Of a stretch of DNA of 64,000 nt, positions 6,124 to 64,000 are shown piece after piece (positions within the stretch are counted from its first letter, which is position 1; each line of letters starts with the position of its first letter). The stretch comes from a virus: positions 29,998 to 93,997 of IMG/VR virus record IMGVR_UViG_3300043464_001711; one strand, 5' to 3'. The translations under genes were made by a program, and so were the position numbers. The notes beneath the pieces are model-generated. The model was not told the origin of the DNA, ran no database searches, and was given only the letters and a program-made list of their open reading frames with translations.

Positions 6124-6124
6124 T

Positions 6125-6499: not shown

Positions 6500-6966
6500 A
6501 ATTTTTTGTTTTTATCAAAAATTGTTATTAGGTTTTCTATTAACCTCATATTATAAATACCTTCTTGTCTTAAAATTTTATTTGTATCACTATCGTGATC
6601 TTCATTATCTATTCTAACGTTAGGTAATTCTATTTTATTTGAGGCACCTATATTATCCATAGAATCTTTAGTACCTTTAATTCTTTGTCTTGCGTCTGAT
6701 AAAGTTTTTTCAACCCAGTTTTTCATTAAAGTACCACCATTCAATAAATAAGGTGTACTTTTCTTACTCCCCTGATAGTTATCAAAAAAATTTTTTATTA
6801 ATTTTAATTGTTCATAACTAATACCATCTTTATCTATTAATTTTTTAAGTCTTTGGTGACCTTCTTCATTTTTAGCACCTTTATATGCGTTAAAAATTAA
6901 ATTTAAATGGTTTTTAATTTTTTTATCAATATCAAAAGATTGTCCTTGTAATTCTGAATTAGCCAT
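6463..6966 (-). CDS. Hypothetical phage protein
   Basis: 167-aa ORF; start overlaps the upstream stop. Confidence 0.65.
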   Translation of the reverse strand: MANSELQGQSFDIDKKIKNHLNLIFNAYKGAKNEEGHQRLKKLIDKDGISYEQLKLIKNFFDNYQGSKKSTPYLLNGGTLMKNWVEKTLSDARQRIKGTKDSMDNIGASNKIELPNVRIDNEDHDSDTNKILRQEGIYNMRLIENLITIFDKNKKLCQDQHNQSHQF

Positions 6967-7532
6967 TACATAATTTTCTTTTTAAGTTCATTTTTATATT
7001 CAACAGGTATATCAGTCACGTCCATACTTAAAAGGTAATTTAACATGATAGCTTTTTCCTCACCAGTTGCTTCACCTTTTTCTATTAAATCTTTAAGATT
7101 TTGAACTTTTCTAATTAAAATGGGGTTTGTATCCCTTATAGTATCTATTTCTGGGATAGCATTTAATCTTAAATCACTTTTGGTTTTTTGGACAAACTCT
7201 TTATCAAAATCTTTTTTAGTAAAAATATCTTCAATTAAAGAATCCATCTTGTGTCTAGACACTTCATCCAAACTTACGTTTTTTTTAATTTTATTTTTTT
7301 TCTTTTTTGGTTTTGATTTAATTTCATCACCCTCTAATTCATCGTCTTCACCTAGATATGTAACCCTACCATAATTATTATATTGGTTCCAGCCATTTTG
7401 TCTAACCATTTGTATCCTATCGTCGGTGGTATACTTTGAGGATGTCATATTATCATCTTGATTAATAGGTTCATCACCTCTAATCTTAGCACCATTTTTA
7501 CCTATAAACTCATTTAAAAATAAAATATTCAT
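6966..7532 (-). CDS. Hypothetical phage protein
   Basis: 188-aa ORF preceded by TATTTATA (7553-7546, minus strand). Confidence 0.65.
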   Translation of the reverse strand: MNILFLNEFIGKNGAKIRGDEPINQDDNMTSSKYTTDDRIQMVRQNGWNQYNNYGRVTYLGEDDELEGDEIKSKPKKKKNKIKKNVSLDEVSRHKMDSLIEDIFTKKDFDKEFVQKTKSDLRLNAIPEIDTIRDTNPILIRKVQNLKDLIEKGEATGEEKAIMLNYLLSMDVTDIPVEYKNELKKKIM

Positions 7533-7581
7533 GAATTACTTTTCTTATAAATATCAGGTAATTCATGAATATTTAAAAGAT

Positions 7582-35479: not shown

Positions 35480-36367
35480 ATGGATGGTAAAACTTTTATA
35501 TATGGTTTATATAATATAAATGACGTAAAAAAAGAAATAAGATATATAGGTAAAGCTGATAACCCTGAATATCGTTTAAAAAGACACAAAAACAATACTT
35601 TATACAATAAAAAAATAAATAAGAAATTAACCCATAAAGAAAATTGGATAATTGATTGTGATTACAATATAGATTATATCATTATCAGTGAGTGTAGTAT
35701 CACTGATTGGGTTGAATTAGAAAAAAATCTAATAAAAAATTATCCAAATTTAACAAACACTGCTAATGGTGGTGAAGGTGGTTCAGGTATAAAATATAAA
35801 ATAACCTACGAAGAATGTAAAAAATGGGTAAAAGAAAATGTTAAAGTTAAATCTAAAACGGATTGGTCTAACAAATTAAAATTATTACCAGATTACATAC
35901 CAAAAAACCCTAACCAAAGGTATAAAAATGATGGTTGGGTTAGTTGGGGTGACTTTTTAGGTACCAATACAGTTAGTGATAACTATGTTAATTATTTAAA
36001 CTATGATGAAGCTAAAAAAACAATAAATTTATTGAATATTAAAAAAGTTATAGATTATAAAATTTTAGCTAAAGAAGGTAAAATACCACACAATATACCA
36101 AATAGACCTAATAGGTATTATGAAAATCGTGGTTGGTTGGGGTGGTCAGACTTTTTAGGGTGTGATATTATTGCTAATCAAAATAAGAAATTTTTTAATT
36201 TAGAAGAATTCAAAATAAATATTAAAAAATTAAACATTAAAAAAATGTCTGAATATAAAAAATATTGTTTAAGTGGTAGTAGGGATGGGAGAATGCCAAC
36301 TAACCCTCTTACAGTCTACCGTAGAGAAGATAAGAAAGTTAGTTGGCTAGATATTATTACCCCTTAA
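35480..36367 (+). mobile_element. Free-standing GIY-YIG homing endonuclease
   Basis: FIYGLY...IRYIGKA...R...E...LTN; three C-terminal PxxPxxxY...W..W.D repeats. Confidence 0.85.
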
Positions 36368-40214: not shown

Positions 40215-41750
40215 ATGGACTTTTCTTTTTTTACAACAAACAACAAATCGGGTCATAAAACCAAAGAGTCTTGGTTTTCCAAAAATTACCCCGAAGAATA
40301 CTTAAAAATAATTGACCATACCTCAAGATTCGGTTTAAAAACATTTAAAGAAAAAATATGGTTTTTCTACCATAATTTAAAATCAATACCAAAATGTCCT
40401 TGTGGTAATCAATCAAAATTTAGTGAAAGGTTTGACAGGGGTTATCAATCCTTTTGTTCCTTAGAATGTGCTAACAACAATAAAGAAGAATTAATAAAAA
40501 GACAAAAAAAAAGTATAAATAAAAAATGGGGTGTAGATTTCTATACACAACACAAAGATTTCATAAAAAAACAAAAAGAAACAAAGAAAAAACGTTATGG
40601 TAATGAAAGTTATAATAACGTTGAAAAAATGAAAAATACTAAAAAGTTGTTATATGGCAAGTCTGGTTACAATAATTCAGATAAGAATAAAATAACAAGA
40701 CGTGATAGTTTTATTAAACTAGTTAAAGAAAAAACAAAAGATGTTTTTGTTTCATATGAATTAGATTCGGATAATATCACATTAAATTGTTCTATATGTA
40801 ATCAAAATTATCTAATATATAATAATTTATTTAATTATAGAACAAAACAAAAATCAACATTATGTACTTTATGTAACCCAACAGACAACAAACAAGTTTC
40901 GGGACTTGAGTTGGACCTAATAAATTTTATATCTAAAATAATTAAGGTTGAGACTAAAAACAGGTCTGTTTTAGGTGGTAAGGAATTGGATGTGTTTATC
41001 CCATCAAAAAAATTAGCTATAGAGTTTAATGGGTTGTATTGGCATTCAGACATATATAAAGACAAAAATTACCATTTAAATAAAACTATTGAATGTAACA
41101 AAAAAAATATAAATTTATTACATGTTTTTGAGGATGAATGGTTAGAGAAATCCGATATCGTTAAATCAATAATTAAAAACAAGTTAGGTGTTTGGGATAA
41201 AAAAGTTTATGCTAGAAATTGTGAGATAAGGGTTGTTAATAAATCTGAAGAAAAATTGTTTTTAAATTTAAACCATATTCAAGGGTTTGTTGGGTCAAAT
41301 ATTTCCTATGGTCTTTATTATTGTGATGAATTAATTTCCATAATGACTTTTGGTGGTTTAAGGAAATCTTTAGGATATAACTCAAAAGAGGGGTCTTATG
41401 AGATGTTAAGATTTTGTAATAAATTAAATTATAACATTATCGGTGGAGCATCAAAATTATTTAAGCATTTTGTTAAAATGAATAACCCAAAACAAATTAT
41501 ATCGTATTCTGACAATCGTTATTTTGATGGTTTTTTATATAAAAATTTGGGCTTTGCGTTTATTGGTGAGACCAAACCAAATTATTTTTATGTTATTAAT
41601 CATAACAGAGAAAATAGGTTTAAATATAGAAAAGATGTTTTAATTAAGGAGGGTTTTGTTAAATCACTAACAGAAAAAGAAATTATGAAATCTAGGGGGT
41701 ATAATAGAATATGGGATTGTGGTAATAAAAAATGGGTTATAAATTTATAA
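40215..41750 (+). mobile_element. Hef-like free-standing homing endonuclease
   Basis: Cys zinc motifs, ELDVFIPSKKLAIEFNGLYWH, HVFEDEW, then ARNC...HIQG...EMLRFC...GGASKL...WDCG. Confidence 0.8.
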
Positions 41751-48592: not shown

Positions 48593-48718
48593 GCAAATAA
48601 TATAATAATAATATTTAATTATATATTAATTTATTTATCTATTAATAGTAGCTTCTAAGCGCAAAATTGATAAGTAAATTTGAATATGTAAATATTTATA
48701 TAAAAAATATTAGAAAAT

Positions 48719-51700
48719 ATGCCTAATGATATAAACCCAAATGATTATAATATAGATTTCTTCTCTACCCAAAGTCTAGGTGTCACTACGGCAACTAATT
48801 TTAGGGATTATCTTTTAAATAAAAATCTAACAGAAATACCTGAAGAATTGGTTAATGGTGCTGCAGGTAATTTTAGTAGTAAATATGCAGAAAAGGGGGC
48901 AGAGAAGTCTATTAACTATACTCAGATATCTGACCCTGGTAATGTTGATGAGTGGATACTAGAGGGTAACTATAGTGTTAGTTCACATGAGGTGAGAGAT
49001 ATTGGCATGTTAAAAGGAAATCAATATGGACCACCTTCAATTCAAGCATATTCGTATAATAACCCTGAATTAATAGATGAAAGTACTGGGTTTTTACAAT
49101 ACCCAACTTCAACTGGAGGAGATGATTTTAAACAAGTTTTATTAAGTGACCAATTAATAGGTTTAGGACCTGGTGTTTCAATTAATTTTCCCTCAGATTT
49201 AAATGATATCGCAAAAGAAAGAAGAAAAGAAGAGGCTATTAATAGGGTAAAACTTAAAGCCGAAAATAATATTTTAGGTAAATTAAATTTAGACCCATTC
49301 GGTTTATTAGCTGGACAAGATTTAATTTTAAAAGATTATAAAATTACAACTAACCCAACCATTGGGGGTAAAATATTAGAGTTTTTTACTGATGCTGTTG
49401 ATATAAATATTCCTGTTAGTCCAATACCAACAAATGCTTTTGGTAAATATGGTGATACAGATGGTCCTGAGGCTTATTCAGATATAATGAAATCTACTGG
49501 TTCAGGTACAAAAGCTTTAATATACAACTCTGTTTCAGTTAATAAATACGGACCGACTTTAAGTGAACCTAAAGGTTTGTTAGCTAATGTTTTTGGTGCA
49601 GGTCAAGCTTCACAAAAAAACACGTATTTGACTCCACCTACTGAATTAATAAATAATGATTTATTTAATCTACCTATTGTAGATAAAATTAACAGAGCTG
49701 TAGGTAAAGCCGTTGACGCTATAACAAAAACACAAATAGAGAATGATAGTACAATTCTTCTACCAACTGAAAATCTCAATCCTTCGATAACATTAGATGG
49801 TATCCAACAAAATGCTCAAGCTGGTTTTGATACACTACCTAGTTCGGGTCTTATCGACACTTGGAATTTAACAGGTCCTACTAAAAAAATAGAAATACCT
49901 GGGGTTCCATTTTCAATACCTATACCTGATGACGGACCTGACGGACCTATTGGTACTAAAATACCTTTAGATGTAAGTGAAGATTTTTATCCTGGTAACG
50001 CCGCTAGTAACGGTTCTAAAAACAATGGTGTATCTTATGATAGAGGTATGTATTGGGGTAATCAAACTAGTAATCCATTTAGAAAAGGTATATTAAAATA
50101 CACACAAGACTTAATTAATAATTCTAGAAATACTAAAGATTATAAAGATAAGGCTAGATATATTGGGGCTTCTAATGATGCTTCTAATTTTGACAGTACA
50201 ACAGGGAGACATAAAAATTATTCAATGGGTAACACTGTTACTGACGCTGAAAATAAATTTTATTGTCGTTCTTGGTCAGTTAGAAACCCTTATAGAAAAG
50301 TTAGTGATTTAGTTAGACATGGTGGTGGTACTGAAGCAAATAGAAGAAGTTTAACAAGAGAAGATTTAAATTTAAGTGTTTTAGCCGATAATGGTTTTGT
50401 TAAAGTAGCTCCTTATTATAATGCTGGTATGGCTAAAGATATAATAGAGGGTAATATTAAATCTAATTTAGAGGGTGAAACATTAAACCTAGGTAACCCA
50501 TCTGTACAAAAATATATGTTGTCTATTGAAAATTTAGCTTGGCAAAATACAGAACATATATTACACGTACCACCTTGTGAGGTTGGACCTAATGGGGGTA
50601 GAATAATGTGGTTCCCACCATATAATATTAGTTTTACAGATAACTCAAGCGTTAACTGGGAAGCAACTTCTTTTATTGGTAGAGGTGAACCTGTTTATAC
50701 TTATAATAATACAGAAAGAACTGGTACTCTTACATTTACCTTAATAATTGACCATTCTATGGCAATGACAGAAATAAAAGAAAAGGGTGAATACGCTTTA
50801 TTTAGATATTTTGCTGGTTGTGAAGATCCTTTAGAAGTTTTTACTGCTATGGTACCAAAAGCCGTTAATGAGGAAGTAAAAGTACAACAACAAGTACAAG
50901 AAGACGTACCCAACCCAAATTCAACAGTAAAAGAAGAAGAATTTAAAGTTACAAAACCAACACCACCACCAACAGATAAAATACAATTTTATTTTAGAAA
51001 TGCTCGTAGTTTTGAAAAAGATACTATTGGTACTAATTTAGAAACAGAATTAGGACCTAATGCTAATGAACAACCACCTAATTATAAAGCAGAATATACT
51101 AGATTATGGCCTAATGGTTATTTAAGATCTAATGCGAATAATGTACCGGCTACTATAATTTCTGATGGTACAACAATACCTAACCCAGCTTATACTGCAA
51201 CAACAACAAGTCAATTAGATTCTTTAAATGAGGTAGCTTATCAAGATATGTCTAAGTTAATAGATTTTTTATTAACACCTGATGGTAAAAGATATAAAAT
51301 TAAAATTATTGGTAAAACAAGTGACGCTGGACCAACAACAGGGCAAAAAAGTAACCAAAAATTGGCACAAGCTAGGGCTAATTCTACAAAAAATTATTTA
51401 TTAAAAAATATTTTAGAAATTGAGGGTAACTTAACCGATCCAAAATTTAAAGCAACTAATTTAGGTTCAGAAAGTACATACCCAACAGAGTCGGAATGGA
51501 AAGACAGTACTCTAAGATGGGAAGTTTTAGCGGTAGGTGAAAACGATGCAAGTTTATCGGTATCTTACGATGAAGGTACAGGACAAAAGAAAGAATCGAA
51601 AGATGATAATAGAAAATTTGGTGATACGCAAACAAGTGTACCTGCGGCAATAAGAAACAGAACTACTTTAATTATATTAGAATATAATAAAGAAATTGAT

Positions 51701-53167
51701 GATTCAATTATAGGACCGGCACAACAAACAGACCCTAATGCTGGTGCAAGTTCTGAAGAAAACATAAAAACAATACCCGAAGTAACAGTAACACCTAAAA
51801 ATAATAATAAAAATCAAAATACTGAAACACAACCTTCAGCTGAAGAAAAACTACAAAAACAAAGACAAGAAGAATTAGCCAAAGCTTTAGCCGCTAAAGC
51901 TAGTAGATATATGGCTTGGGAATGTTCTTATTTCAATAAAATGCAACAAGAAGATTCTTTTATTTATGAATCTTTACAAGAAAAATTAAAATATTTTCAC
52001 CCAGCATTTCATTCAATGACACCTGAAGGATTTAATGCTAGATTAACATTTTTAAAACAATGCACTAGACAAGGACCTAATATTGCTGTAGGTGAACCTA
52101 GTAATTTGGCTTTTGGTAAACCACCAATTTGTGTGTTAAGAGTAGGTGATTTTTACCATACTAAAATAGTGATAGATTCTGTTAGTTTTTCTTTTGATCC
52201 ATTACAATGGGATTTAAATCCTGAAGGTATAGGTGTACAACCTATGTTATGTAATGTTGATTTAAGTTTCAAATTTATTGGTGGTTCTTCATTAGGTGGA
52301 CCTATAACACAACTACAAAATGCAGTATCATTTAACTTCTTTGCTAATACAGCTTTATATAACCCAAGAGTGATTTATCAGTCGGCTGGAGACTATGTAA
52401 CTAAGAGACGTGACCCATTAACAGATCAAATAACTGAAACTAAAGTTAGTACAACCAATACTAAAGGTAAGAATTTTGAATATGGAGCTTATATGACACC
52501 TACACAGTCATTTAAAATAGAATCAGCTAATAACTCAACGTCTGAACAATCAGGTAAAGATAGTATTAATTCTACTGGTGACCTATCACAAGCACAAACA
52601 GCTAAACAACAAAATGATCAAGGAATTGTTGGTAAAGACGCTACACCATCAGAAGAAAATAAAACTAGAATTGAAGACGCTGTTAGTGAAGACCAAAAAG
52701 TGAATGAGAATACAGATAATAAAGGTGTGGGTGATGCTAATAAGGGTGGTAATGAAAACAAAACAATAAAAGGTTTTGATAAGAAAAAAGGTGTATATAC
52801 GGTACAATACGCACAAGTATTAACATTTAAACCTTTTGGTGATAAGAAAACACAAAGTGATACTAGTTATGAAAAACTGAAAATACCAGTAGGAACAACA
52901 GTCACTATTTTGGATTTAACTGGTGATGGAGTAAAAGAAGTTGTTATATCACAAACCATAAACACAAAAACCAGCAAAACTTTCTACAATAAATTTAGTT
53001 TAAATTGTGGTGGTAATAATGGTCTAGATTTCTTATCAAACAGTTATAATGGTTATGAGGGACTTACTGATGGTGGTTATTATTCTAATAGTACATTAGC
53101 TAATGTATTAAGACCTATTTTTTGTAAAGGTAATGTCCCAAAAACAAAAAAAGAATTAACTACTTAA
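48719..53167 (+). CDS. Large baseplate/tube-initiator-like protein with an OmpA-like domain
   Basis: FIGRGEPVYTYNNTER and PPICVLRVGD flank IKIIGKTS...NQKLAQARA...GE...RNR. Confidence 0.65.
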   Translation: MPNDINPNDYNIDFFSTQSLGVTTATNFRDYLLNKNLTEIPEELVNGAAGNFSSKYAEKGAEKSINYTQISDPGNVDEWILEGNYSVSSHEVRDIGMLKGNQYGPPSIQAYSYNNPELIDESTGFLQYPTSTGGDDFKQVLLSDQLIGLGPGVSINFPSDLNDIAKERRKEEAINRVKLKAENNILGKLNLDPFGLLAGQDLILKDYKITTNPTIGGKILEFFTDAVDINIPVSPIPTNAFGKYGDTDGPEAYSDIMKSTGSGTKALIYNSVSVNKYGPTLSEPKGLLANVFGAGQASQKNTYLTPPTELINNDLFNLPIVDKINRAVGKAVDAITKTQIENDSTILLPTENLNPSITLDGIQQNAQAGFDTLPSSGLIDTWNLTGPTKKIEIPGVPFSIPIPDDGPDGPIGTKIPLDVSEDFYPGNAASNGSKNNGVSYDRGMYWGNQTSNPFRKGILKYTQDLINNSRNTKDYKDKARYIGASNDASNFDSTTGRHKNYSMGNTVTDAENKFYCRSWSVRNPYRKVSDLVRHGGGTEANRRSLTREDLNLSVLADNGFVKVAPYYNAGMAKDIIEGNIKSNLEGETLNLGNPSVQKYMLSIENLAWQNTEHILHVPPCEVGPNGGRIMWFPPYNISFTDNSSVNWEATSFIGRGEPVYTYNNTERTGTLTFTLIIDHSMAMTEIKEKGEYALFRYFAGCEDPLEVFTAMVPKAVNEEVKVQQQVQEDVPNPNSTVKEEEFKVTKPTPPPTDKIQFYFRNARSFEKDTIGTNLETELGPNANEQPPNYKAEYTRLWPNGYLRSNANNVPATIISDGTTIPNPAYTATTTSQLDSLNEVAYQDMSKLIDFLLTPDGKRYKIKIIGKTSDAGPTTGQKSNQKLAQARANSTKNYLLKNILEIEGNLTDPKFKATNLGSESTYPTESEWKDSTLRWEVLAVGENDASLSVSYDEGTGQKKESKDDNRKFGDTQTSVPAAIRNRTTLIILEYNKEIDDSIIGPAQQTDPNAGASSEENIKTIPEVTVTPKNNNKNQNTETQPSAEEKLQKQRQEELAKALAAKASRYMAWECSYFNKMQQEDSFIYESLQEKLKYFHPAFHSMTPEGFNARLTFLKQCTRQGPNIAVGEPSNLAFGKPPICVLRVGDFYHTKIVIDSVSFSFDPLQWDLNPEGIGVQPMLCNVDLSFKFIGGSSLGGPITQLQNAVSFNFFANTALYNPRVIYQSAGDYVTKRRDPLTDQITETKVSTTNTKGKNFEYGAYMTPTQSFKIESANNSTSEQSGKDSINSTGDLSQAQTAKQQNDQGIVGKDATPSEENKTRIEDAVSEDQKVNENTDNKGVGDANKGGNENKTIKGFDKKKGVYTVQYAQVLTFKPFGDKKTQSDTSYEKLKIPVGTTVTILDLTGDGVKEVVISQTINTKTSKTFYNKFSLNCGGNNGLDFLSNSYNGYEGLTDGGYYSNSTLANVLRPIFCKGNVPKTKKELTT

Positions 53168-53179: not shown

Positions 53180-53494
53180 ATGGCAGTATATTACGATAGA
53201 TATAGAGATTTTAGAATAGACGGACAAGTATCCACTCTACCTTTTATAAAATTACCCATAAAAGGTTCAGATAAAAAAATTGTTACTGATAAAAAAACAA
53301 GGTTTGATAAAATAAGTCAACAATATTATGGCAACCCTTATCATGGTTGGGTTATTTTACAGGCTAATCCAGAATTCGGTGGACTAGAGTTTGACATTCC
53401 TGAAAATACAATTATAATAGTACCATTCCCTCTTAGTAAATCACTTGAGGATTATCAATCACAAGTTGATAGATATAAAAGATTATACGGATAA
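53180..53494 (+). CDS. LysM-like baseplate wedge protein
   Basis: RFDKISQQYYGNPYHGWVILQANP...IIIVP. Confidence 0.75.
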   Translation: MAVYYDRYRDFRIDGQVSTLPFIKLPIKGSDKKIVTDKKTRFDKISQQYYGNPYHGWVILQANPEFGGLEFDIPENTIIIVPFPLSKSLEDYQSQVDRYKRLYG

Positions 53495-53508: not shown

Positions 53509-56500
53509 ATGGCATTTAATCAAGGACCACAACCTGAAATAGTTTTAAATGAAAACGGGGTTAGGTATGTTGACCCAAATCCAACAGACGAGATAGTTAA
53601 TCACGAAGACCTAGTAATGTATGTTAAATTGGTTGCTAGAGCTAAAGGAAGGAGTATTTTAACATACGACCAAGCCACAGAACAACAAACTGTTATCGTT
53701 GAACAAAAAAATGTTCAATCAGAAACTAATTTCACATATCAAACAGGTAAAGAGTATTTAGATACTAGTTGGACTAATATAGGTGGTGGTAATATAAATT
53801 TTGGTGAAGATTTAGGTTCATTTGGTATTACTAATATCGGTATAGAATTTAAATCTAGTTTTATGCCACAAATAGTAATTGATTTTGTGGATGTACGTGG
53901 GGCGGCTTTATTTGAACAAGGACCTTGTTCACCTTACGCCATATTTTTTCATCTACCGTACCCTGTTTTTGAATTAACAGTTAAAGGTTATTATGGTAGA
54001 CCTGTAACATACACATTAGCTTTAATTAAATTTAATACTAAGTTCAATTCTGAAACAGGTAATTTTGAGTCAAAAGCCGAATTTGTTGGTTATACCTATG
54101 CTTTCTTAGCGGACATCCCAATGGGTTATGTTATGGCAGCAAATTTTATGACTAAACCACACGATGGTAAAACTATATTGGCTGAAAAATGGAAACAACT
54201 TATAGAAAAGAAAATACTAGATAATAGTTTTACAAATGAAAACGAACCTTTAAGTGTTTATGATTTAATTAAAAAATCAAAACAATTAGAACAAAGAACA
54301 CAAGAATTAAAAGGTTTGGCTTCTGTTAAACAGTTAGGGCAAATAAACAGCACTAAAAATCAATTAGACAGTTTAAGAAACATTGTTTCTGAATTCGAAG
54401 GTAAATTAAGAAGTTCAATATCAAAATCAATTAATAGTGGGTTTGATAAAAATAAAGTTTTTTTTATAAAATTACCAAACACCCCAGACACCCAACAAAG
54501 TGCTATTTTAACAGATGTTAAAGCTATTATAAATGAATATTTAGGTGATGGTAATAACTTAGGTGGTAAAATAGGTACTGAAGTAAGTACAGTGAATACC
54601 TATTATAAAACAAACTCAATTGGGGATTCACCTAATATAAATTTTACAAATATTACAAATAACACTAAAGGTTTTTTAAATCAGTCTGTAGGTCAAGAAG
54701 ACGGATTATTAAAATATTCAATAGATTTTGAAGAAAGTTTTTATAAACCATTAAACATTGCCTCTAAAAGTTTAAGTAAACAACAAATTACTAAAAAAGA
54801 TGAAGTTAAAAATACTTTAAATGCTGAGGTAATAAAAACTTTAGGATTTTTACCAACAATAAGTAACGTCTTTGCTATTATTTTAACTAACGTTGAAGTA
54901 TTTTTAGAACTACTATTAAGGACATCTAGAGATGCTGAAAAGTATCACGAAGAAAATGATGTAACCAGTGTTTTAGATGGTACTACACAAAATTTATTAG
55001 AATTAAGAAATAAACCAACAGTTGGAGCACAATTATCGGATGAAGCCTCCACCAATAAACCAATTAAAGTTTATCCTTGGCCAACTTATTATGTACAGAA
55101 AGCACCCGCTAGTGAAACTAACCCCGATAGTAACGTATCAAGTAATAGTTCAGAGGTAGGTACTAAAGAAGCTTATCCTGGTGAAAACCCAGAATTTACT
55201 TCTTGGCCTGAAGTTGTTTTTGTTGAAAACTTTATTAAGGCTTTAACTAGATTAAAAACAGAATTACAAGTTTTAGAATTAGAAAAAGAAAATTTACCGG
55301 GTTACGATAATTTTGCTCCAATAACAGCATATGAAACACATGCTTTTGGTAACGCCAACGCACCAAATAGATGGTATAGATTGCAACAAGATCCTAGTTT
55401 TGAAAACATAATTTATAAAATAATGGGTGAAAACGCTTTTATCCTAGGTGACTATACCATGATTAATACTTTAAGTTTGTGGAAATCACAATTAGGTTTT
55501 ACAAATGGTTGGGGTGTATCATCACTAACAAACTATCAGGGTTCCGGAAATGGTTATATACCAGCCTCAAGTAATGGATTTAATGTTGGGCCACAAAGAT
55601 TGGTTAATAACCCATTGGTTATATCAAATTTAAATCAACCAGAATTAAATAGATACCCAAATATATCTAATAAAGGTTTTAATTATCTATCTTATGGTAG
55701 TGATGCTAAAGATAGAGAAGTGGAATCTTTCAGAAAAAAAATAATCCCAACTACTAGAGCTAGAATGAAAAAATGGGGTTACATAGATGCTTTAAATCTA
55801 ATGACTACAATGAAATTAGATGGTGGTGAAACTACTGTATTAAGTTTTTTAAAAAGCAGTATGACTGTTGAAAATAAAGAAAAAATTAAAAAAGAAATTA
55901 AAGAAAGATTAAGTGAAAGACTTAAAACACAAACTTGGGATGAATGGAAAGTTTCTGCAACACAAGAAATAAGTGGAACCACTGCTTTAATAGATAACCA
56001 AAATAGTATTTGGAGTGGACATTTTGGTTATGTTAAAAAGAAACCAGTATTATCCTATAAAGGACCGATAATATTAAATAGTCAAATAGACGAAGGTAAA
56101 AATATAGAAATACACGCTAACCCACATTTAAATGAGGGTCAAGGGGCAATTTTAACAACAGCTGATGCTTTAGCTGGTAGAGAAATAGATTTTAGTTCTG
56201 AATCTTTAACTGATAATATTAAAAAGAAATATACAGAATATTTTGCTGATGTCTCAACAAACGAAAGTAAAATAAATGAAGATGTGGCCACACCTAATTC
56301 TCTCGCTTATACCACATTAAAATATAGACCAAAACCCTCTACGATAAAATCTAAAACATCTTATGATAATTATAGTTTAGAAAGATCTAATATTAATTTA
56401 ATTAGGGATAAAAATACTAACCTACTATCTTTAGGTGAAAATTTTTATCCAAACTTTTTCCACAAATATGAAGATAATGAGGGATTGGAAAGTAGTAAAA

Positions 56501-58590
56501 TTATATTAGATTTATCTTCTTCTAGAAGATACATTTCTCAAAAAAATGGTAATACTACCGAGAAATGGGCTAGATTTATGGGAGCACCAGAGACAGATGA
56601 TTTAGGTTTTGCTAATTCAATTATTAACACACCATTATGGACACTTAATTATCCACTATACAAAAATGCTTGGAATTGGTCAAAAGCCGGTGGTAATTCC
56701 TATATAGGGTTAGATGAAACAATTAAAACCTCAGATCTAGATTTACCAGAGTCTTACAACAACAATATTTATAAAAATACAAAAAGAAATTGGGGTACAT
56801 GGTGGGGTATTAATCAGTGGGGTGTTGATAACAATACAGATTATTATAAACCTCTAGCTTATATAGCTGTAATGTCTTTTGGCTTTAGAAATCAAAATAC
56901 TAATTATAGGTCCGGTCATTTTTTACCTTGGGATGGTAAGGGTGATTACGATTTATCTTCTTTTTCTAATTTTACACATACAGCTATAGTAGCTAATTTA
57001 CCTAAATCTTATGTTTTATTAATAGGTGCTCTTTTATGGAGAATGAAAGAATCTGGTTTATTAAGATGGGACGATATAAAACCAAAAAGAAACACTATAG
57101 ACGCTAATAACAAGGGTTGGAATACTTTTGATAAGTCTTATTTAGGTGCTGAAGGTGCAGGTAATGTTGGTATTGATGATTTAAATGATCCTGTTTGGTT
57201 CTTCCATACGTCGACTTCAAGACCTTTATACGGTGGTGGTTCTGTTTATGCAAATAATGATGGCTTTGATATAAAACAATCACCATTTACTGACGGTAAA
57301 GGAAAATACCAAAGAGAATGGCTTGGTAGAACGAAGGGTATTGATAATTGGACAAATGGCGGTGGTAGTATAAATAGTTCATTATCTTTAGATGCACCAG
57401 TTACCATCACTAGTTGGACAAAAGGTCAGTTTGTATTTGGTGATGAAAAAAGTGAGTTTAAAAATAGAGCAAGAGGATTTTATGATTTGTGTAGACCCGA
57501 CCAGATTCCTTTTTTAATTTCTAGTGGTGATGATTTTAAAACACCTAATACTTTAGCCATAGTAGAAAAAACTGAAAAAGATAAAAACCCACCATCTAAT
57601 GTGAATACCTCCCTATCTAGACTACCTAATTTAAAATTTGATAATGGTACAGGTTCCACCTCTTACATTAAAACAACTTACCCTGTATTAAAAGAAGAGT
57701 GTAAAGAATTAATGTTTATACCTAAATCACTAAAAGAACAATTTATTCAAGCTTTTGAAAATTGGGCAACAAACGATACAAAATGGTTGGCAACAATTGA
57801 CCCATTAAATTGGACGGATGATGGTAAACTAGAAAATTTTACCACTACCACAAATGGAAATGTAAACACCGCTTACAAAGTAAGTGGTTATAGAGGTTTC
57901 TTAAACCAAGAAACTTATAGTAAATCTAGAAATTTCGGTAAAGTCATCAATGACGAAAAAAAAGATTTCGGATTTTCTAAATTTGATTTTGAGGATAATA
58001 ATAATATTGGATCTAATCAAAAAAAGACTAAAAAAACTAATAAAAATAATAACAGCAGCGAAGAAAATATACCTAGTGGGGGTGGTTCTGAAGGAATCGA
58101 ACAAGCTGGTGGTATAGGTAATTCTTTTTGTTTTGTTGCAGGAACAAAAATTAAATTAGTTGACGGGTCTAGTGTGAATATTGAAGATTTAAATATAGAT
58201 AAAAAATTATTAACATATAACTTAGACACCAAAGAATTTGAAGAAGGTGATATTGGTGAAATACAGGTTGAATACAAAGAAAATTTGGTAACTTATTATT
58301 TTGATAATGGTAATAAAATAAATTGTACTGAAGATCACCCTATTTGGGTAATCGGAAAAGGTTGGTCTTCTTATAGAGCTTATAACTTTACTGAAGATAA
58401 CACACACAATATAAATACAAAAGAAATTATAATAGGTGATGAATGTTTATATTATTCTGATGGGAAGTTCAACAAAGTAAAATTGAATAAAATTATCAGA
58501 AAAAATAATAGACCAACAAGAGTTTGGAGAATTAAAAACCTTAATGTTAATAAAAACTTTATTGCTGGTAATGTTTTAGTCTATAATTAA
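53509..58590 (+). CDS. Baseplate hub-like protein (N-terminal half) ending in a Hint domain
   Basis: FGITNIGI...IDFVDVRG...FELTVKGYYG N-terminus; canonical position after the LysM gene; Hint domain at residues 1541-1693. Confidence 0.7.
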   Translation: MAFNQGPQPEIVLNENGVRYVDPNPTDEIVNHEDLVMYVKLVARAKGRSILTYDQATEQQTVIVEQKNVQSETNFTYQTGKEYLDTSWTNIGGGNINFGEDLGSFGITNIGIEFKSSFMPQIVIDFVDVRGAALFEQGPCSPYAIFFHLPYPVFELTVKGYYGRPVTYTLALIKFNTKFNSETGNFESKAEFVGYTYAFLADIPMGYVMAANFMTKPHDGKTILAEKWKQLIEKKILDNSFTNENEPLSVYDLIKKSKQLEQRTQELKGLASVKQLGQINSTKNQLDSLRNIVSEFEGKLRSSISKSINSGFDKNKVFFIKLPNTPDTQQSAILTDVKAIINEYLGDGNNLGGKIGTEVSTVNTYYKTNSIGDSPNINFTNITNNTKGFLNQSVGQEDGLLKYSIDFEESFYKPLNIASKSLSKQQITKKDEVKNTLNAEVIKTLGFLPTISNVFAIILTNVEVFLELLLRTSRDAEKYHEENDVTSVLDGTTQNLLELRNKPTVGAQLSDEASTNKPIKVYPWPTYYVQKAPASETNPDSNVSSNSSEVGTKEAYPGENPEFTSWPEVVFVENFIKALTRLKTELQVLELEKENLPGYDNFAPITAYETHAFGNANAPNRWYRLQQDPSFENIIYKIMGENAFILGDYTMINTLSLWKSQLGFTNGWGVSSLTNYQGSGNGYIPASSNGFNVGPQRLVNNPLVISNLNQPELNRYPNISNKGFNYLSYGSDAKDREVESFRKKIIPTTRARMKKWGYIDALNLMTTMKLDGGETTVLSFLKSSMTVENKEKIKKEIKERLSERLKTQTWDEWKVSATQEISGTTALIDNQNSIWSGHFGYVKKKPVLSYKGPIILNSQIDEGKNIEIHANPHLNEGQGAILTTADALAGREIDFSSESLTDNIKKKYTEYFADVSTNESKINEDVATPNSLAYTTLKYRPKPSTIKSKTSYDNYSLERSNINLIRDKNTNLLSLGENFYPNFFHKYEDNEGLESSKIILDLSSSRRYISQKNGNTTEKWARFMGAPETDDLGFANSIINTPLWTLNYPLYKNAWNWSKAGGNSYIGLDETIKTSDLDLPESYNNNIYKNTKRNWGTWWGINQWGVDNNTDYYKPLAYIAVMSFGFRNQNTNYRSGHFLPWDGKGDYDLSSFSNFTHTAIVANLPKSYVLLIGALLWRMKESGLLRWDDIKPKRNTIDANNKGWNTFDKSYLGAEGAGNVGIDDLNDPVWFFHTSTSRPLYGGGSVYANNDGFDIKQSPFTDGKGKYQREWLGRTKGIDNWTNGGGSINSSLSLDAPVTITSWTKGQFVFGDEKSEFKNRARGFYDLCRPDQIPFLISSGDDFKTPNTLAIVEKTEKDKNPPSNVNTSLSRLPNLKFDNGTGSTSYIKTTYPVLKEECKELMFIPKSLKEQFIQAFENWATNDTKWLATIDPLNWTDDGKLENFTTTTNGNVNTAYKVSGYRGFLNQETYSKSRNFGKVINDEKKDFGFSKFDFEDNNNIGSNQKKTKKTNKNNNSSEENIPSGGGSEGIEQAGGIGNSFCFVAGTKIKLVDGSSVNIEDLNIDKKLLTYNLDTKEFEEGDIGEIQVEYKENLVTYYFDNGNKINCTEDHPIWVIGKGWSSYRAYNFTEDNTHNINTKEIIIGDECLYYSDGKFNKVKLNKIIRKNNRPTRVWRIKNLNVNKNFIAGNVLVYN
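58129..58587 (+). other. C-terminal Hint/mini-intein-like domain without a C-extein
   Basis: CFVAGTKI (block A), CTEDHPIWV (block B), NFIAGNVLVYN (block G) followed by TAA. Confidence 0.9.
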
Positions 58591-58593
58591 AAT

Positions 58594-60543
58594 ATGTCTG
58601 AAAGAATAATAGGGTTAAAGAAGGAAGAATCAGGCAATCAAAATAAAGTGCTTTATGATGAATTGTTTGTTAAAGATTCTGGATATAGGTTAGTCTCTTC
58701 TACACCTAAAGTTTTTTCTGCAATACATCCTGATGATTTTGGTGAAAATTTTTATATTTCTGAGGAAGAATTAGATTTTTACATTGAAGGTTTTATTTCC
58801 GCTGTTTCAGAAAATGTTGACGATATATCACAGAATATAGTAAAAGAAGAATCTAATAATAATGATTTAGAATCTGGTTTAGATGATTTAGATACTAAAC
58901 TATCCTTATATAGGTCATTTAGATCATTGTATGATAAATGGATTGCTAGTTCTAATATAGACGGTGAAACATCTAGTGGATATTTCTTCAATAATTATGG
59001 TCAAAGTGAAGTTAATGGTGAGGATGATAAAAGATTATTATTTGAACACTTTTCTTTTGTAAATAGAACAAATTCTAATATAGGTAATAGAGCAGTTATA
59101 GACTTCTCATACCTATCAAATTTAGCTAACTCTAAAAATGGACAAGGACCAACACAATCTTTATACGAATCAATAACTAATCTACTAACTGAAAATAAAT
59201 TTGAGTTTTTCGCAATGCCTAGTTTAATAGGTTATTCAGATTCAGATTCAAAAGATTTGATAGATATATTTAGAACGATAGATGGACCAATAAATAGAAT
59301 ACCAGCTAAACCTGGTTTTATATGTATGTTTATTGGTGGTAATTCTAGAACATTAGATATCCCACAATCTTATTGTGGTATTAATCGTGTTGGTTTTGAT
59401 TTTGTAAACGACTCATTTGATATAGACGATCCAACCACATATCCACAAGATTTTACTGATAATGGGGGTATTACCGCATTTAAAGTTAAATACGGACAAC
59501 AAACCCAAAATCATTTTAAAAGTATAGAATTAGACCAATCGGAATTCAAAGAAACCCAAGAATCTTTAATAGTAATAGATTCTTTAACAAACCCCTCTAG
59601 TGGTTCAGATCCAGTAAAAATTGGTAAGGGTAATAATGTCTACGATGTTAATTTAACAAGGGGTTATTCTTGTACCGTCACAATGTTGGGTGATATGCAA
59701 ATACAGCCAATGATGATCTTTAAATTAGAGAATGTCCCTATGTTTAGGGGAACATATTTAATAACATCTGTTTCACATAATATTAAACCACACAATGTAG
59801 AAACAACATTTAAGGGTGTGAGACAACCAATAGTAACAGTACCTATTGTAACTGAGGCATTAAGTTTATTGGATTTAGCTTTAGCGGAAGTAGTACAAGG
59901 AGACCAAGCTTTACAAAGTAATAATGGTACTATATCATCACAATCATTATTTGGTGATGTTGGTAGTAGTGATGTAACACCACCTGAAATAGACTTAACT
60001 GTTTATGGTGATAATTCAGATAAAACATGTCCTAAAGACCCATTAATTTCTGATGGTGGTGTGGGTGATGCTTACATCAAAGGTAAATTATATAAAATTA
60101 GATTGTGTAAAGTTAAAGGTACCGATGGTAACACAGCTAAAGTTAACGTTGAAATGGCTTTAAATTTAGCTAACATGATTAGAAAGGCACAACAAGATGG
60201 TGTTAAATTAACCCTCGGTAGTAACTTTAGAACAATGCAAAGCCAAGTAAATACCGCTAGAAGTAATGGATGTTACAAATCTGGTAATTTTAATAGATCT
60301 GATTGTAATGTGGCTACCGCACAACCAGGTTATTCTAATCACCAAAGTGGTTCAGCTATAGATTTTGGTTGTAACGGTAAAACCATATGTTACAGTAATA
60401 GTTCAGCTTGGTGTGAAAAAAATGGTTCACAATTAAGGCCAAATGAATATCCTTGTTTTGAATGGATGGTTAGAAACGCTAATAGTTATGGTTTTTATAA
60501 TTATAAAAAAGAAGCTTGGCACTGGTCAATAAATGGTGCGTAA
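58594..60543 (+). CDS. Hub C-terminal module 1 with an M15/VanY-like zinc peptidase
   Basis: Shared module (CTVTMLG...GTYLITSVSH...FKGVR), then FRT, SNHQSGSAID and EAWH. Confidence 0.85.
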   Translation: MSERIIGLKKEESGNQNKVLYDELFVKDSGYRLVSSTPKVFSAIHPDDFGENFYISEEELDFYIEGFISAVSENVDDISQNIVKEESNNNDLESGLDDLDTKLSLYRSFRSLYDKWIASSNIDGETSSGYFFNNYGQSEVNGEDDKRLLFEHFSFVNRTNSNIGNRAVIDFSYLSNLANSKNGQGPTQSLYESITNLLTENKFEFFAMPSLIGYSDSDSKDLIDIFRTIDGPINRIPAKPGFICMFIGGNSRTLDIPQSYCGINRVGFDFVNDSFDIDDPTTYPQDFTDNGGITAFKVKYGQQTQNHFKSIELDQSEFKETQESLIVIDSLTNPSSGSDPVKIGKGNNVYDVNLTRGYSCTVTMLGDMQIQPMMIFKLENVPMFRGTYLITSVSHNIKPHNVETTFKGVRQPIVTVPIVTEALSLLDLALAEVVQGDQALQSNNGTISSQSLFGDVGSSDVTPPEIDLTVYGDNSDKTCPKDPLISDGGVGDAYIKGKLYKIRLCKVKGTDGNTAKVNVEMALNLANMIRKAQQDGVKLTLGSNFRTMQSQVNTARSNGCYKSGNFNRSDCNVATAQPGYSNHQSGSAIDFGCNGKTICYSNSSAWCEKNGSQLRPNEYPCFEWMVRNANSYGFYNYKKEAWHWSINGA

Positions 60544-60546
60544 TAT

Positions 60547-62466
60547 ATGTCTAACGAAAGAATAATAGGATTAAAGAAAGAAGAATCGGGCAATCAAAAT
60601 AAAGTGCTTTATGATGAATTGTTTGTTAAAGATTCGGGCTACAGACTAGTGTCATCAAGTCCAAAAGTTTTTTCTGCAATACATCCTGATGATTTCGGTG
60701 ATAATTTTTACATCTCAGAAGAAGAATTAGATTTTTATATTGATGGGTTTATTTCTGCTATATCAGATAACGTCGATGATGTTATAGATAATTTAGTAAA
60801 AGAAGAAGCAAATCAAATTAATGATTTAGAATCTGGTTTAGATGATTTAGATACTAAACTATCCTTATATAGATCTTTTAAATCTTTAAATGATAAATGG
60901 ATAATCAGTTCAAATTATAATGAAGGTAGTAAAACTAGATATTTTTATGATAACAATAAATTTGTTAGTGGTGATACAAAATTATTATACGAATATTTTT
61001 CTTTTGTAAATAGATGCGGAACCTCAATTGGTAGTAAGGCTGTTATAGATTTTTCATATCTTTCTAATTTAGGTAGTGTACAAAATGGCCAAGGGCCAAC
61101 AAAATCTCTTTATGAATCACTAACTGGTCTTTTAACTGAAAATAATTTTATATTCCACCCTTTACCAGCATTTGTTACTTATTCAGATAAAGATTTAACA
61201 CCTTTAACCGATATGTTTAGAACAATAGACGGTCCATTAAATAATTTATCGGCTGAACCTAATTTTGTTTGTATGTTTATTGGTGGTAGTTCTAGAGCTT
61301 TAGATATACCAACCTCATATTGTGGTTTAGGGGGGACTAATTTTCAATATACTAACGACTCTTTCGATGTTAACGACCCAACAACTTACCCAGAAGATTT
61401 TAGGTCAGGTGGTGCGATAAATGCGTTTAAAGTTAGGTATGGACAAGAAGCACAAAATCATTTTAGTAGAATAGAGCTGGACCAAGCAGAATTTAAAGAA
61501 ACACAAGATTCTTTATTGGTAATAGACGCTTTAGTTAATCCGTCTAGTGGTTCAAACCCAACAAAAATCGGTAAAGGAAATAATATCTATGATGTTAATT
61601 TGACTAGGTCTTATACCTGTACAGTAGAAACTTTAGGTAATATGCAAATACAACCAATGATGTTCTTTAAATTGGAAAATGTACCAATGTTTAGAGGCAC
61701 TTATTTAATTACTGATGTTAGTCATACAATAAAACCACATAATGTTATAACTTCTTTCAAGGGAGTTAGACAACCAATAATGACTGTACCAATCGTAACT
61801 GAGGCATTAAGTTTATTAGATTTATCTTTAGTTGAAGTAGTAGAAAATAATAACAACCAAAATACATTAGGTTCATCACAAACTAGTGATTTGGGTAATG
61901 ATAGTTTTGCCTCCATAAATTTAGTACCATTAGAATCTATTGGTGATAATGTAAAAGATGCTTTAATTTATTTTATAAAAACAGTGAAGTTACCACCTTA
62001 TAAAGCTATAGGTATTATAGCGGCTATAATGGGTGAATCTGGTACAAAATTAAATCCAAAAGCGTTAAATAGTAGTTCAGGTGCTTTTGGTATTGCTCAG
62101 TGGTTAGGTAATAGGTTACAAGGTTTAAAACAACTAACTAATTTTGAATCATTATCAACCCAATTACAGTATTTATGGAGTGAATTAGATCCTAATAGTA
62201 AAAATGTTGATACAATAGCTAAACCTTATATATCTAAAGCCACCTCTAAAGAAGAAACATTAGCGGCAATGGCTTTATTTGAAAGATGGGAATACCCAGT
62301 TAAATTATTTAAAAGTAATGGTAACTCATATAAAAACGTATACCCGATATTAGTAGCTGAAGTAATAAATAAAAGTACACCAGATAAATCTTTAAGGGAT
62401 AGAATAGGTTATTTAGTTAGAGTTGAAGAAGTTTATAACAGTTTAAAATCCCAAGGATTAGTTTAA
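60547..62466 (+). CDS. Hub C-terminal module 2 with a phage tail lysozyme
   Basis: Shared module, then GIIAAIMGESG...LNP...GAFGIAQW...QLQYLWSEL...FER. Confidence 0.85.
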   Translation: MSNERIIGLKKEESGNQNKVLYDELFVKDSGYRLVSSSPKVFSAIHPDDFGDNFYISEEELDFYIDGFISAISDNVDDVIDNLVKEEANQINDLESGLDDLDTKLSLYRSFKSLNDKWIISSNYNEGSKTRYFYDNNKFVSGDTKLLYEYFSFVNRCGTSIGSKAVIDFSYLSNLGSVQNGQGPTKSLYESLTGLLTENNFIFHPLPAFVTYSDKDLTPLTDMFRTIDGPLNNLSAEPNFVCMFIGGSSRALDIPTSYCGLGGTNFQYTNDSFDVNDPTTYPEDFRSGGAINAFKVRYGQEAQNHFSRIELDQAEFKETQDSLLVIDALVNPSSGSNPTKIGKGNNIYDVNLTRSYTCTVETLGNMQIQPMMFFKLENVPMFRGTYLITDVSHTIKPHNVITSFKGVRQPIMTVPIVTEALSLLDLSLVEVVENNNNQNTLGSSQTSDLGNDSFASINLVPLESIGDNVKDALIYFIKTVKLPPYKAIGIIAAIMGESGTKLNPKALNSSSGAFGIAQWLGNRLQGLKQLTNFESLSTQLQYLWSELDPNSKNVDTIAKPYISKATSKEETLAAMALFERWEYPVKLFKSNGNSYKNVYPILVAEVINKSTPDKSLRDRIGYLVRVEEVYNSLKSQGLV

Positions 62467-62477
62467 TATTAAATAAA

Positions 62478-64000
62478 ATGTCTAACGAAAGAATAATAGG
62501 GTTAAAGAAAGAAGAGAGTGGAAACCAAAATAAGGTTTTATATGATGAATTATTCGTTAAAGATTCTGGGTACAGACTTGTTTCTTCCACACCTAAAGTT
62601 TTTTCTGCTATTCACCCCGATGATTTTGGTGAAAATTTTTATATTTCTGAGGAAGAGTTAGATTTTTACATTGAAGGCTTTATTCAGGCTGTTTCAGATA
62701 ATGTGGGTGATGTTATAGATAATTTAGTAAAAGAAGATTCAGCTAAACTTGATGATATAGAATCTGGTTTAGATGATTTGGATATTAAACTATCTCTTTA
62801 TAGATCATTTAAATCACTTTATGATAAATGGATTTCTAATTCAATATCACCTAATGGTGTAACAAATGGTTATTTTTATAATAATTATGGTGGTGATGAT
62901 GATAGAATGTTATATGAACATTTTAAATTTGTTAATAGAGCAAATCAAAATATAGGTGACAAAGCTGTTATAGATTTTTCTTATTTATCAAATTTAGCTA
63001 ACACACAAAACGGACAAGGACCGACACAATCACTTTATGAATCTTTGACCGGTTTGTTAAGTGAAAACAAATTTGATTTTTGGCCTTTACCAGCAAACAT
63101 ATCATTAACACAAGATAGTTTAAGTAATGAAGATGTTAAAGATATATTTAGGACACTAACTCTTGTTACTGATTTAAAACCAGGACCAACCTTTGTTTGT
63201 GTTTATATTGGAGGCAGTTCAAGAACCTTAGCTGATTTACAAAGTAGTGGTGATGCTTGTGTTAATAATAATGGTTCTTTTTATTATACCGACGATTCTT
63301 TTGATATAACAAAAGTTGAAGATTGGCCGGCTGAATATGCTGCTAGTAATGAAGGTGTTGTTGTTTTTAAAGTTAGATATGGACAAGAAGCACAAAACCA
63401 CTTTGATTCTATTGAGTTAGACCAAACAGAATTTAAGGAAACACAAGAATCTTTACAGATTATAGATGCTTTAACTAACCCTAATAGTGGTTCTAATCCA
63501 TCAAAAACAGGTAAAGGTAATAATATGTATGACGTTTACTTAACTAGGTCTTATAATTGTACCGTTTCAGGTTTGGGTAATATGTCTATACAACCATTAA
63601 TGCATTTTAAATTAGAAAATGTACCTATGTTTAGGGGTACTTATTTAATTACAGGTGTTAAACACACAATAACACCACACAACATAAAAACTGAATTCAC
63701 AGGTATGAGACAACCTAAAATTACAATTCCAGTTGTGACTGAAGCGTTAAGTTTAATTGATTTAGCTTTAGCTGAAACAATTACACAAGGTACCGTACAA
63801 AATGATAGTTCGTCAGACGTTTCAAATTTTAGTAGTAGTGATATAGAAAACTTTAGTGGTGTAGACACTAATTCTAAAGGTTGTGAAATAGCTAGAAAAT
63901 TAAGTAATGATTTAAGTATTTCATTAGAACAGGCTTCTGGTATAGTCGGTAATTTAGTAGCTGAAAGTGGATTAATACCTAATAGAATACAAGGTGGGGG
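62478..64000 (+). CDS. Hub C-terminal module 3 with a second phage tail lysozyme (partial, not in the ORF track)
   Basis: MSNERIIGLKKEESGNQNK start; same frame at the window end reads QASGIVGNLVAESGLIPNRIQGG. Confidence 0.85.
   Translation, partial: MSNERIIGLKKEESGNQNKVLYDELFVKDSGYRLVSSTPKVFSAIHPDDFGENFYISEEELDFYIEGFIQAVSDNVGDVIDNLVKEDSAKLDDIESGLDDLDIKLSLYRSFKSLYDKWISNSISPNGVTNGYFYNNYGGDDDRMLYEHFKFVNRANQNIGDKAVIDFSYLSNLANTQNGQGPTQSLYESLTGLLSENKFDFWPLPANISLTQDSLSNEDVKDIFRTLTLVTDLKPGPTFVCVYIGGSSRTLADLQSSGDACVNNNGSFYYTDDSFDITKVEDWPAEYAASNEGVVVFKVRYGQEAQNHFDSIELDQTEFKETQESLQIIDALTNPNSGSNPSKTGKGNNMYDVYLTRSYNCTVSGLGNMSIQPLMHFKLENVPMFRGTYLITGVKHTITPHNIKTEFTGMRQPKITIPVVTEALSLIDLALAETITQGTVQNDSSSDVSNFSSSDIENFSGVDTNSKGCEIARKLSNDLSISLEQASGIVGNLVAESGLIPNRIQGG

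Follow-up and report, generated by a model that had tools for sequence, protein, structure and literature searches.

Why would a large phage protein end in a complete intein-type domain and a stop codon, to be followed at once by three genes that each resemble a version of its missing C-terminal end? The question is raised by positions 29,998 to 93,997 of the IMG/VR virus record IMGVR_UViG_3300043464_001711, a stretch of 64,000 nucleotides (nt) that was analysed as a whole and is called the window here. Within it, an open reading frame (ORF) of 1693 amino acids (aa) runs through a flexible linker into a Hint domain of 153 aa and stops, and three further ORFs follow closely, with gaps of 3, 3 and 11 nt between the four (Table 1). 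The initial annotation, made from the sequence of the window alone, had read the long protein as the N-terminal half (N-half) of a split baseplate hub, and the ORFs behind it as alternative C-terminal halves (C-halves) joined to it covalently or non-covalently. The layout that it described holds when the ORF coordinates are checked, as do the Met-Ser start of all three downstream ORFs and the repeated module of ~430 aa at their beginning (67–73% pairwise identity, E 1e-188 to 1e-294). Its statement that each C-half ends in a different cell-wall hydrolase stands for the contrast between a VanY-type peptidase and lysozyme but not for C-halves 2 and 3, which both carry Phage_lysozyme2, C-half 3 being extended by ~200 residues in a near-identical relative (L008).

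The reading developed below is that one ancestral hub-lysin gene was cut in two, that the halves would find each other without a covalent bond, and that the Hint domain would form a thioester and remove itself by hydrolysis. The split is strongly supported by sequence comparison; non-covalent assembly together with self-removal of the Hint domain is given about an even chance.

Split of an ancestral hub-lysin gene

If the two halves derive from one gene, homologues in which they form a single ORF without a Hint domain should exist, and the initial annotation had proposed to look for them. A search for longer module-bearing proteins returned at least 81 database proteins of 1137–2989 aa, nearly all of which, according to BLAST, carry the N-part first and the module and lysin later in one chain. 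Among IMG/VR contigs, the fused gene was found at 43 loci (35 distinct ORFs), and 14 further loci are truncated at the 5' end and have the module internally. Each of these loci, the truncated ones included, contains exactly one module. A Hint hidden Markov model (HMM) built from 18 sequences found no match in any of the 81 proteins or 35 distinct ORFs, and searches of five fused homologues against Pfam and PHROGs returned lysin domains only and no intein. The idea of a split hub is thus borne out by many contiguous, Hint-free homologues.

The position of the break can be read from the same alignments. In fused proteins, a W-Y/F-x-x-Y-G-like motif is followed after 2–10 aa by R-[IV]-x-x-[LF]-[RKQ], and a motif of this second type opens every separate C-half. 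The break therefore lies at one defined point. In a quick maximum-likelihood tree, ten split-type modules form one clade (Shimodaira–Hasegawa-like approximate likelihood-ratio test (SH-aLRT) 99) that is nested among fused modules; a single origin of the split is the simplest reading of this topology, with the split as the derived state. Fused relatives often carry two enzymes per chain, for example Amidase_2 or VanY together with Phage_lysozyme2, and the split clade puts its enzymes on separate C-halves. In one fused-type homologue (L024), a single in-frame TAA at positions 5330–5332 of its locus divides the gene into same-frame ORFs of 817 and 1249 aa. The closely related L025 has no such interruption, and L024 may represent a second break without a Hint domain, a pseudogene or an artefact of assembly.

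Separate C-halves were collected in 73 clusters, which end in VanY, Phage_lysozyme2, Amidase_2, GH24 or M74. Residue 2 in these clusters is Ala (27), Ser (25), Gly (11), Val (3), Thr (2) or Pro (1), but in no cluster Cys. Ahead of R-I-x-x-L-[RK], the C-halves carry an N-terminal extension of 0 to ~16 residues, with a difference of one residue even among the three copies in the window. Met-Ser in this phage is accordingly not the mark of a conserved nucleophile, residue 2 being mostly Ala, Ser or Gly and the extension variable in length, and the argument from Met-Ser is not supported. Three module copies occur here and in L004-type phages and two in L010 and L016, and extra copies are confined to split loci. 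A fixed 1:1:1 heterotrimer, which three copies might have suggested, is weakened by the relatives with two. In the same quick tree, copy 3, of the lysozyme type, is orthologous between phages, while each lineage duplicated copies 1 and 2 on its own.

The start of the module is under particular constraint. Over their first 40 residues, the three modules are identical at 37–39 positions, and 32–44% of the codons for those identical residues differ. Near-identical residues encoded by differing codons argue for strong purifying selection rather than gene conversion, and the conserved start points to a docking surface common to all three C-halves. At one split locus without a Hint domain (L016, positions 5955–10333), the first C-half consists of the module only (463 aa), and a separate ORF of 313 aa with a tail-lysozyme match (phrog_1259) lies between the two modules; the lysin itself has therefore split off there.

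Hub fold and predicted docking of the halves

By sequence, the module is not recognized as a member of the gp27/gpD/gp44-type hub family. Apart from Hint-related Pfam matches, Pfam and PHROGs recognized nothing outside the lysin domains in the N-half and C-halves, and the contig gave no match to PF05954 (Phage_GPD). Searched against the PDB as sequence profiles, neither the module nor the N-terminal part produced a meaningful match, and hhalign against a single P2 gpD sequence aligned only a C-terminal motif, at a non-significant 2% probability. A lead towards Phage_GPD/YQBQ came from the Atlas, with a score of 0.85.

Structure prediction was more informative. A first fold of the whole C-half, based on 45 close sequences, resolved only the VanY domain. 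With an alignment of 48 sequences, the module was modelled at a mean predicted local distance difference test (pLDDT) of 60, with values of 63–90 over residues 150–320 and 355–420. Compared by Foldseek and by an independent all-against-all aligner, this model returned central hub proteins in nearly all top rows (Z 7–9.2), including Mu gp44, tail proteins of MuSo2 and Neisseria, the R2 pyocin hub, Afp8/Pvc8, the P1 hub, VgrG and the tip proteins of lambda and T5. In the viral structure library BFVD, the matches were protein D, XkdQ/YqbQ and baseplate hub subunits. Residues 145–417 of the model align to residues ~120–345 of hubs of ~330 aa, and the module is therefore modelled as the C-terminal two-thirds of a gp27/gpD-type hub, in agreement with the gp27/VgrG-type reading of the initial annotation. 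Since the module would cover only these two-thirds, the N-half should contain the first hub domain. Analogy with the family suggests that the hub is presumably trimeric at the tail tip.

An interface between the halves had also been part of the original proposal, with complex prediction as the check. When the N-terminal 660 aa of the N-half were modelled together with module residues 140–441, the interface score ipSAE reached 0.75, against 0.01 for the best control. The predicted interface is very large (~480 contacts), agreement between the runs extends to at least 71% of contacts, and the pLDDT of the partners is at least 62. Of 80 solved complexes, 58 reached this mark, as did 2 of 110 mismatched pairs, a calibration that is only rough, as the alignments used were our own. 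Since hub structures have already been solved, part of this result may reflect memory of, or likeness to, such structures.

The terminal Hint domain and the fate of the junction

The characteristic residues of the Hint domain are Cys1541 (Cys1), T1607-E-D-H1610 in block B and the terminal Asn1693. The domain ends in V-L-V-Y-N followed directly by TAA, with a penultimate Tyr instead of His, and its block F reads V-W-R-I. The best Pfam match is AXH (6e-11), and Intein_splicing (2e-3) falls below its cut-off. A profile of the domain and 18 relatives matched PDB entries 6tmm (8e-18) and 2lwy (5e-15), inteins (1e-8 to 1e-4) and Hedgehog (~1e-3), which places the domain, by sequence, in the type A bacterial intein-like (BIL) kind. 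The full 153-aa domain sits on the N-half and the Hint HMM finds nothing in the C-halves; the view that this is not a classical split intein, the whole domain lying on one chain, is thus upheld. The same profile also matches the solved AXH domains of ataxin-1 and HBP1 (3e-15 to 4e-13), which share a block D-H-P-x-x-V-x-x-K-G-W-S-S; either AXH is a Hint derivative, or the AXH model mislabels microbial Hints, as in a Tenacibaculum protein.

In the split clade, 13 of ~16 N-half clusters end in a Hint domain, under the Pfam names AXH, Intein_splicing, Hint or Vint. Two clusters clearly lack it (L016/P0172, which ends in ...Y-L-K-G-D, and P0175, which ends similarly), and three others are truncated or frameshifted. 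Both Hint-free lineages still have the broken gene and its multiplied C-halves. All 13 Hint-bearing clusters have Cys1 and the block-B His without exception, and TxxH is kept in most, with Thr replaced in four. The terminal His-Asn is kept in the closest group (Tyr-Asn in this phage). It has given way to HS, HQ, TS and KE in four clusters and is lost in the two Vint-type clusters as well; SG is also found among the more distant phage relatives, and usually 0–6 residues follow this C-terminal pair. Invariant Cys1 and His next to a decaying His-Asn suggest that the conserved chemistry is the N–S acyl shift and the reaction at the N-terminal junction, and not C-terminal cleavage. Judged by these residues, the domain should be able to form a thioester at Phe1540–Cys1541.

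The domain belongs to a very large and apparently unstudied family of protein-terminal Hints, which the search exposed in Bacteroidota, DPANN archaea and bacteria of the candidate phyla radiation (CPR). The subfamily comprises 1589 representatives. Among the best 148, no domain follows the Hint in 106, and these proteins typically close with I-L-V-H-N-K. Its hosts are Bacteroidota, DPANN and Thermoplasmatales archaea, CPR bacteria and Streptomyces, and the nearest cellular relatives are RHS-type proteins of Flavobacteriia, for example Tenacibaculum and Dokdonia. Other members form tandem arrays of 2–7 Hints, and up to 18 Hint stretches occur in an archaeal ORF of 4046 aa (L128). In Bacteroidota (L086, L088, L090, L095, L098, L103–L105 and L119), a Hint-ended gene is followed, at -4 to +19 nt, by an ORF of 123–151 aa with a Tyr/Phe-rich start such as M-x-x-x-F-D-Y-I-Y-Y, which may encode an immunity-like or partner protein. 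A separately encoded C-extein as a general rule fails in Bacteroidota, where the following ORFs are small (~130 aa) and lack a start of Met plus a small residue.

The following course of events is proposed. The genes would encode the central hub and the tail-associated lysin of the phage. Most relatives make these as a single giant chain, in which an N-terminal hub part and a long middle precede the gp27/gpD-like module, and one or two cell-wall hydrolases come last. In this clade the gene would have been broken once, at the fixed point between W-Y-x-x-Y-G-x-D and R-[IV]-x-x-L-[RK], whereupon the C-half, consisting of hub module and lysin, became a gene of its own and was duplicated repeatedly, leaving here three copies with a VanY peptidase and two lysozyme-type enzymes. 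All four genes would be expressed from one late transcript, and each N-half would dock one C-half through the large non-covalent interface, so that a presumably trimeric hub could carry mixed enzyme tips. The Hint domain would perform the N–S acyl shift at Phe1540–Cys1541 and most likely leave by hydrolysis of the thioester rather than by transfer, freeing the junction. Some findings weigh against this course. N-halves with as little as 30–50% identity still carry the Hint domain, its catalytic residues intact, though any nonsense mutation in the linker would remove it, and retention despite such easy loss suggests a role beyond self-excision. The domain also occurs only together with the split, never with fused genes, and the model of the module is of middling quality.

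The retention of the domain and its confinement to the split speak for a different fate of the thioester. After removal of Met, the free N-terminal amine of a docked C-half could attack the Phe1540–Cys1541 thioester, release the Hint domain and rebuild a covalent hub-lysin with any of the three C-halves. The chemistry would be that of type A BIL domains, with the free-amine C-flank supplied by separate translation instead of Asn cyclisation. Such trans-ligation is possible but less likely than hydrolysis. It would account for the confinement of the Hint domain to split genes (13 of ~16 N-half clusters against none of 81 fused proteins and none of 35 distinct fused ORFs) and for the invariance of Cys1 and His where a single nonsense mutation could drop the domain. 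The nearest solved relative is, moreover, a type A BIL domain (2lwy), and joining by free-amine attack on the thioester has been proposed there (PMC4031507). Residue 2 of the C-halves is nearly always small (Ala, Ser or Gly) and hence compatible with Met removal, very strong constraint acts on the N-terminal ~65 aa of these proteins, and the flexible linker could bring the thioester to the docked N-terminus. However, residue 2 is not a conserved Ser, Thr or Cys, and one cluster even has Pro; the extension before the module differs in length even among the copies here; a ligated product would bear a floppy loop of 40–100 aa where fused relatives have 2–10 aa; and with so large a predicted interface no covalent bond is needed. 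In the type A BIL domains that have been studied, cleavage dominates over splicing (PMC4031507). Ligation as a requirement is not supported, given the two viable lineages that are split, with duplicated C-halves, without any Hint. For these reasons, namely the dominance of cleavage, the Hint-free splits, the variable N-termini of the C-halves, the large interface and the long loop of a ligated product, hydrolysis is favoured. That the Hint domain is a natural device for "expressed protein ligation", joining one N-half covalently to alternative C-halves as a protein-level analogue of alternative splicing throughout a clade of freshwater giant phages, can be put forward only tentatively.

Transfer of the thioester to some other nucleophile (a virion protein, a lipid or a cell-wall amine), which would anchor or modify the C-terminus of the N-half much as cholesterol modifies Hedgehog, is improbable. 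The extreme C-terminal position of the Hint in those 106 of the best 148 subfamily matches, with no C-extein, suggests a general end-of-protein function independent of a split partner, yet no sterol-recognition-like or other adaptor region follows the Hint (only 0–6 residues do), the phage loci showed no conserved partner gene and nothing points to any particular acceptor. Still less probable is that the domain is left over from an intein of the formerly fused gene and is now inert, neither cleaved nor used. Its appeal lies in the degenerate C-terminal cleavage residues (Tyr-Asn for His-Asn, V-W-R-I in block F) and in the other inteins and homing endonucleases of this genome, but the invariance of Cys1 and the block-B His, with TxxH mostly kept, speaks against decay, and among more than 115 fused sequences no gene with an intein at the break site was found. 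It is also very unlikely that the C-halves are alternative cassettes, of which one per infection or lineage is put to use by recombination and which do not assemble together. The layout does recall polymorphic-toxin loci, in which a variable tip comes directly after a HINT peptidase and is followed by spare cassettes (PMC3482391), and the nearest cellular Hints belong to RHS-type proteins of Flavobacteriia. Every copy is, however, a full ORF with its own ATG, 3–11 nt from the preceding gene; the synonymous divergence of 32–44% leaves scant identical DNA for recombination; copy 3 is orthologous across phages; and contigs of four metagenomes reveal no consistent rearrangement, the few joints listed each coming from a single contig of one run.

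Its layout sets the locus apart from each of the systems that it resembles. Type A BIL domains (Amitai 2003; Dassa 2004), among them that of C. thermocellum (PDB 2LWY), share with the phage domain the Hint fold, Cys1, the block-B TxxH, a C-terminal Asn (preceded by Tyr instead of His in this phage) and the lack of a +1 nucleophile. Unlike them, sitting as they do inside one polypeptide whose C-flank is released by Asn cyclisation, the phage chain stops at Asn, and its C-flank is translated apart in three versions. Naturally split inteins and fractured genes (DnaE; Dassa et al. 2009) likewise present one ancestral gene as two ORFs with intein-type sequence at the break. In contrast to their IntN and IntC halves, which need a +1 Cys, Ser or Thr, the phage has the whole Hint on the N-fragment, no IntC and no conserved nucleophile at residue 2. 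Polymorphic toxins, for which a HINT peptidase has been described (Zhang et al., 2012; PMC3482391), also combine a large delivery protein with variable C-terminal tips. In those systems the HINT acts in cis before the toxin and the spare cassettes are substrates for recombination, whereas each phage tip is encoded by a complete gene, all in the same orientation, and also contains a copy of a structural hub module. The Hedgehog C-terminal autoprocessing domain is another protein-terminal Hint whose thioester is open to an external nucleophile, but the phage domain lacks a sterol-recognition region and the sequence match is weak (E ~1e-3). Finally, the gp27–gp5, P2 gpD, Mu gp44 and VgrG hubs and tail lysins agree with the phage proteins in the fold of the module, the C-terminal lysin and the position at the end of the tail block; the phage hub differs in its spread over a polypeptide of ~2200 aa, its long middle of unknown fold, its distribution over two genes and the multiplication of the second half. 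Literature searches for a Hint or intein in a phage baseplate, hub or tail lysin, and for AXH with an intein, found no description of a Hint-ended split hub.

If the halves assemble non-covalently, the locus would be a natural case of a giant virion protein broken at one point, with the enzyme-bearing end duplicated and diversified to place peptidase, amidase and lysozyme tips on one hub. Such an arrangement would offer a route to altered specificity for the host envelope without copying 1500 residues of scaffold. If, on the other hand, the C-halves do capture the thioester, a new natural protein ligation would emerge, with a complete Hint on one chain, no IntC, no side-chain nucleophile and several partners, and a mechanism of this kind would be of obvious value for protein engineering.

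Gene layout, genome context and occurrence

The hub genes lie at the end of a contractile-tail gene block (sheath, tube, T4-type baseplate protein, tape-measure-like protein), downstream of the tape-measure-like gene. A late-promoter-like motif was found 19 times against 9.6 expected, most matches lying just upstream of late genes. The copy before the 1482-aa gene (Table 1) is the last intergenic one up to the window end, and terminator-like sites are not above chance; the hub genes are therefore probably carried on one shared late transcript. ORFs similar in size to the small gene before the N-half occur at the same place in L004–L007 and L016. Read-through or recoding of the stop codon at the N-half/C-half junction was considered and rejected, since the third junction is out of frame and the corresponding genes of L004-type phages overlap, as TAATG, in another frame. 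Although C-half 3 is open at the contig end, the near-identical relative L008 gives its full length as 829 aa, including the ~200 residues beyond the lysozyme domain; small unknown genes and replication genes follow there, and no fourth module.

Table 1. Positions in the window of the split hub-lysin genes, their parts and neighbouring features
Feature	Position	Strand	Remarks
dUTPase N-part with intein N-terminus	1–594	-	dUTPase through N-T-P-G-T-V-D directly into Cys-Phe-Ser-Gly...
GIY-YIG / HNH homing endonuclease genes	35480–36367; 40215–41750		within tail block
Late-promoter-like motif AATATTTAT	48691–48699	+	before 1482-aa gene
1482-aa protein	48719–53167		directly upstream of hub genes; OmpA-type peptidoglycan-binding domain, aa 835–897
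Small 104-aa gene	53180–53494	+	phrog_7145, E 1.5e-4, weak baseplate-wedge-type match
N-half of split hub-lysin, 1693 aa including linker and Hint	53509–58590	+	colinear with N-part of fused homologues of 1500–3000 aa
N-terminal 660 aa	53509–55488	+	most conserved in family (core ~aa 100–215, alignment); predicted to pack on module
Last conserved N-half block, K-E-L-M-F-I-P ... I-D-P-L-N-W	57703–57813	+	few tens of residues before module in fused homologues
Low-complexity linker, N/K/S/G/E-rich	57997–58128	+	residues ~1497–1540; ends G-I-G-N-S-F before Cys1
Hint domain, type A bacterial intein-like (by sequence)	58129–58587	+	residues 1541–1693, 153 aa
Cys1541	58129–58131		Hint catalytic residue
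T1607-E-D-H1610	58327–58338		Hint catalytic residues
Asn1693	58585–58587		terminal residue of Hint
Junction TAA-AAT-ATG	58588–58596	+	N-half stop, one spacer codon, C-half 1 start; same frame
C-half 1, 649 aa	58594–60543	+	module aa 1–435 (58594–59898); VanY-type peptidase aa 516–645 (60139–60528)
C-half 2, 639 aa	60547–62466	+	hub module; Phage_lysozyme2 aa 468–584 (61948–62298)
C-half 3, 507 aa, open at contig end	62478–64000	+	hub module; start of Phage_lysozyme2

The window comprises the last 64 kb of a viral contig of 94 kb, and its end coincides with the contig end. CheckV puts the completeness of the contig at 29%, and the phage is therefore probably giant; with the contractile-tail genes, it is probably a giant or large freshwater myovirus. 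In the window, the G+C content is ~30% and Shine-Dalgarno sequences are absent. The phage is widespread in freshwater: the region 57600–61000 recurs, near-identical, in 20 sequencing runs from 19 studies, nearly all of lake water and dated 2016–2025. The stop/start junction is unchanged in contigs of three independent lake metagenomes, and the ending of the N-half is shared by a 97%-identical protein of different origin. Among GenBank phages, tblastn with the N-half and C-half 1 gave no match. Because the nearest cellular Hint relatives are found in Flavobacteriia, a Bacteroidota host fits the sequence.

Other genes of the window deserve brief mention. The 1482-aa protein with the OmpA-type domain may be another tail-tip or ejected protein. 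The homing endonuclease genes inside the tail block indicate that mobile elements have been active around the structural genes, and besides the hub Hint the genome holds further inteins, one of which begins directly behind the N-terminal part of the dUTPase at the opposite end of the window.

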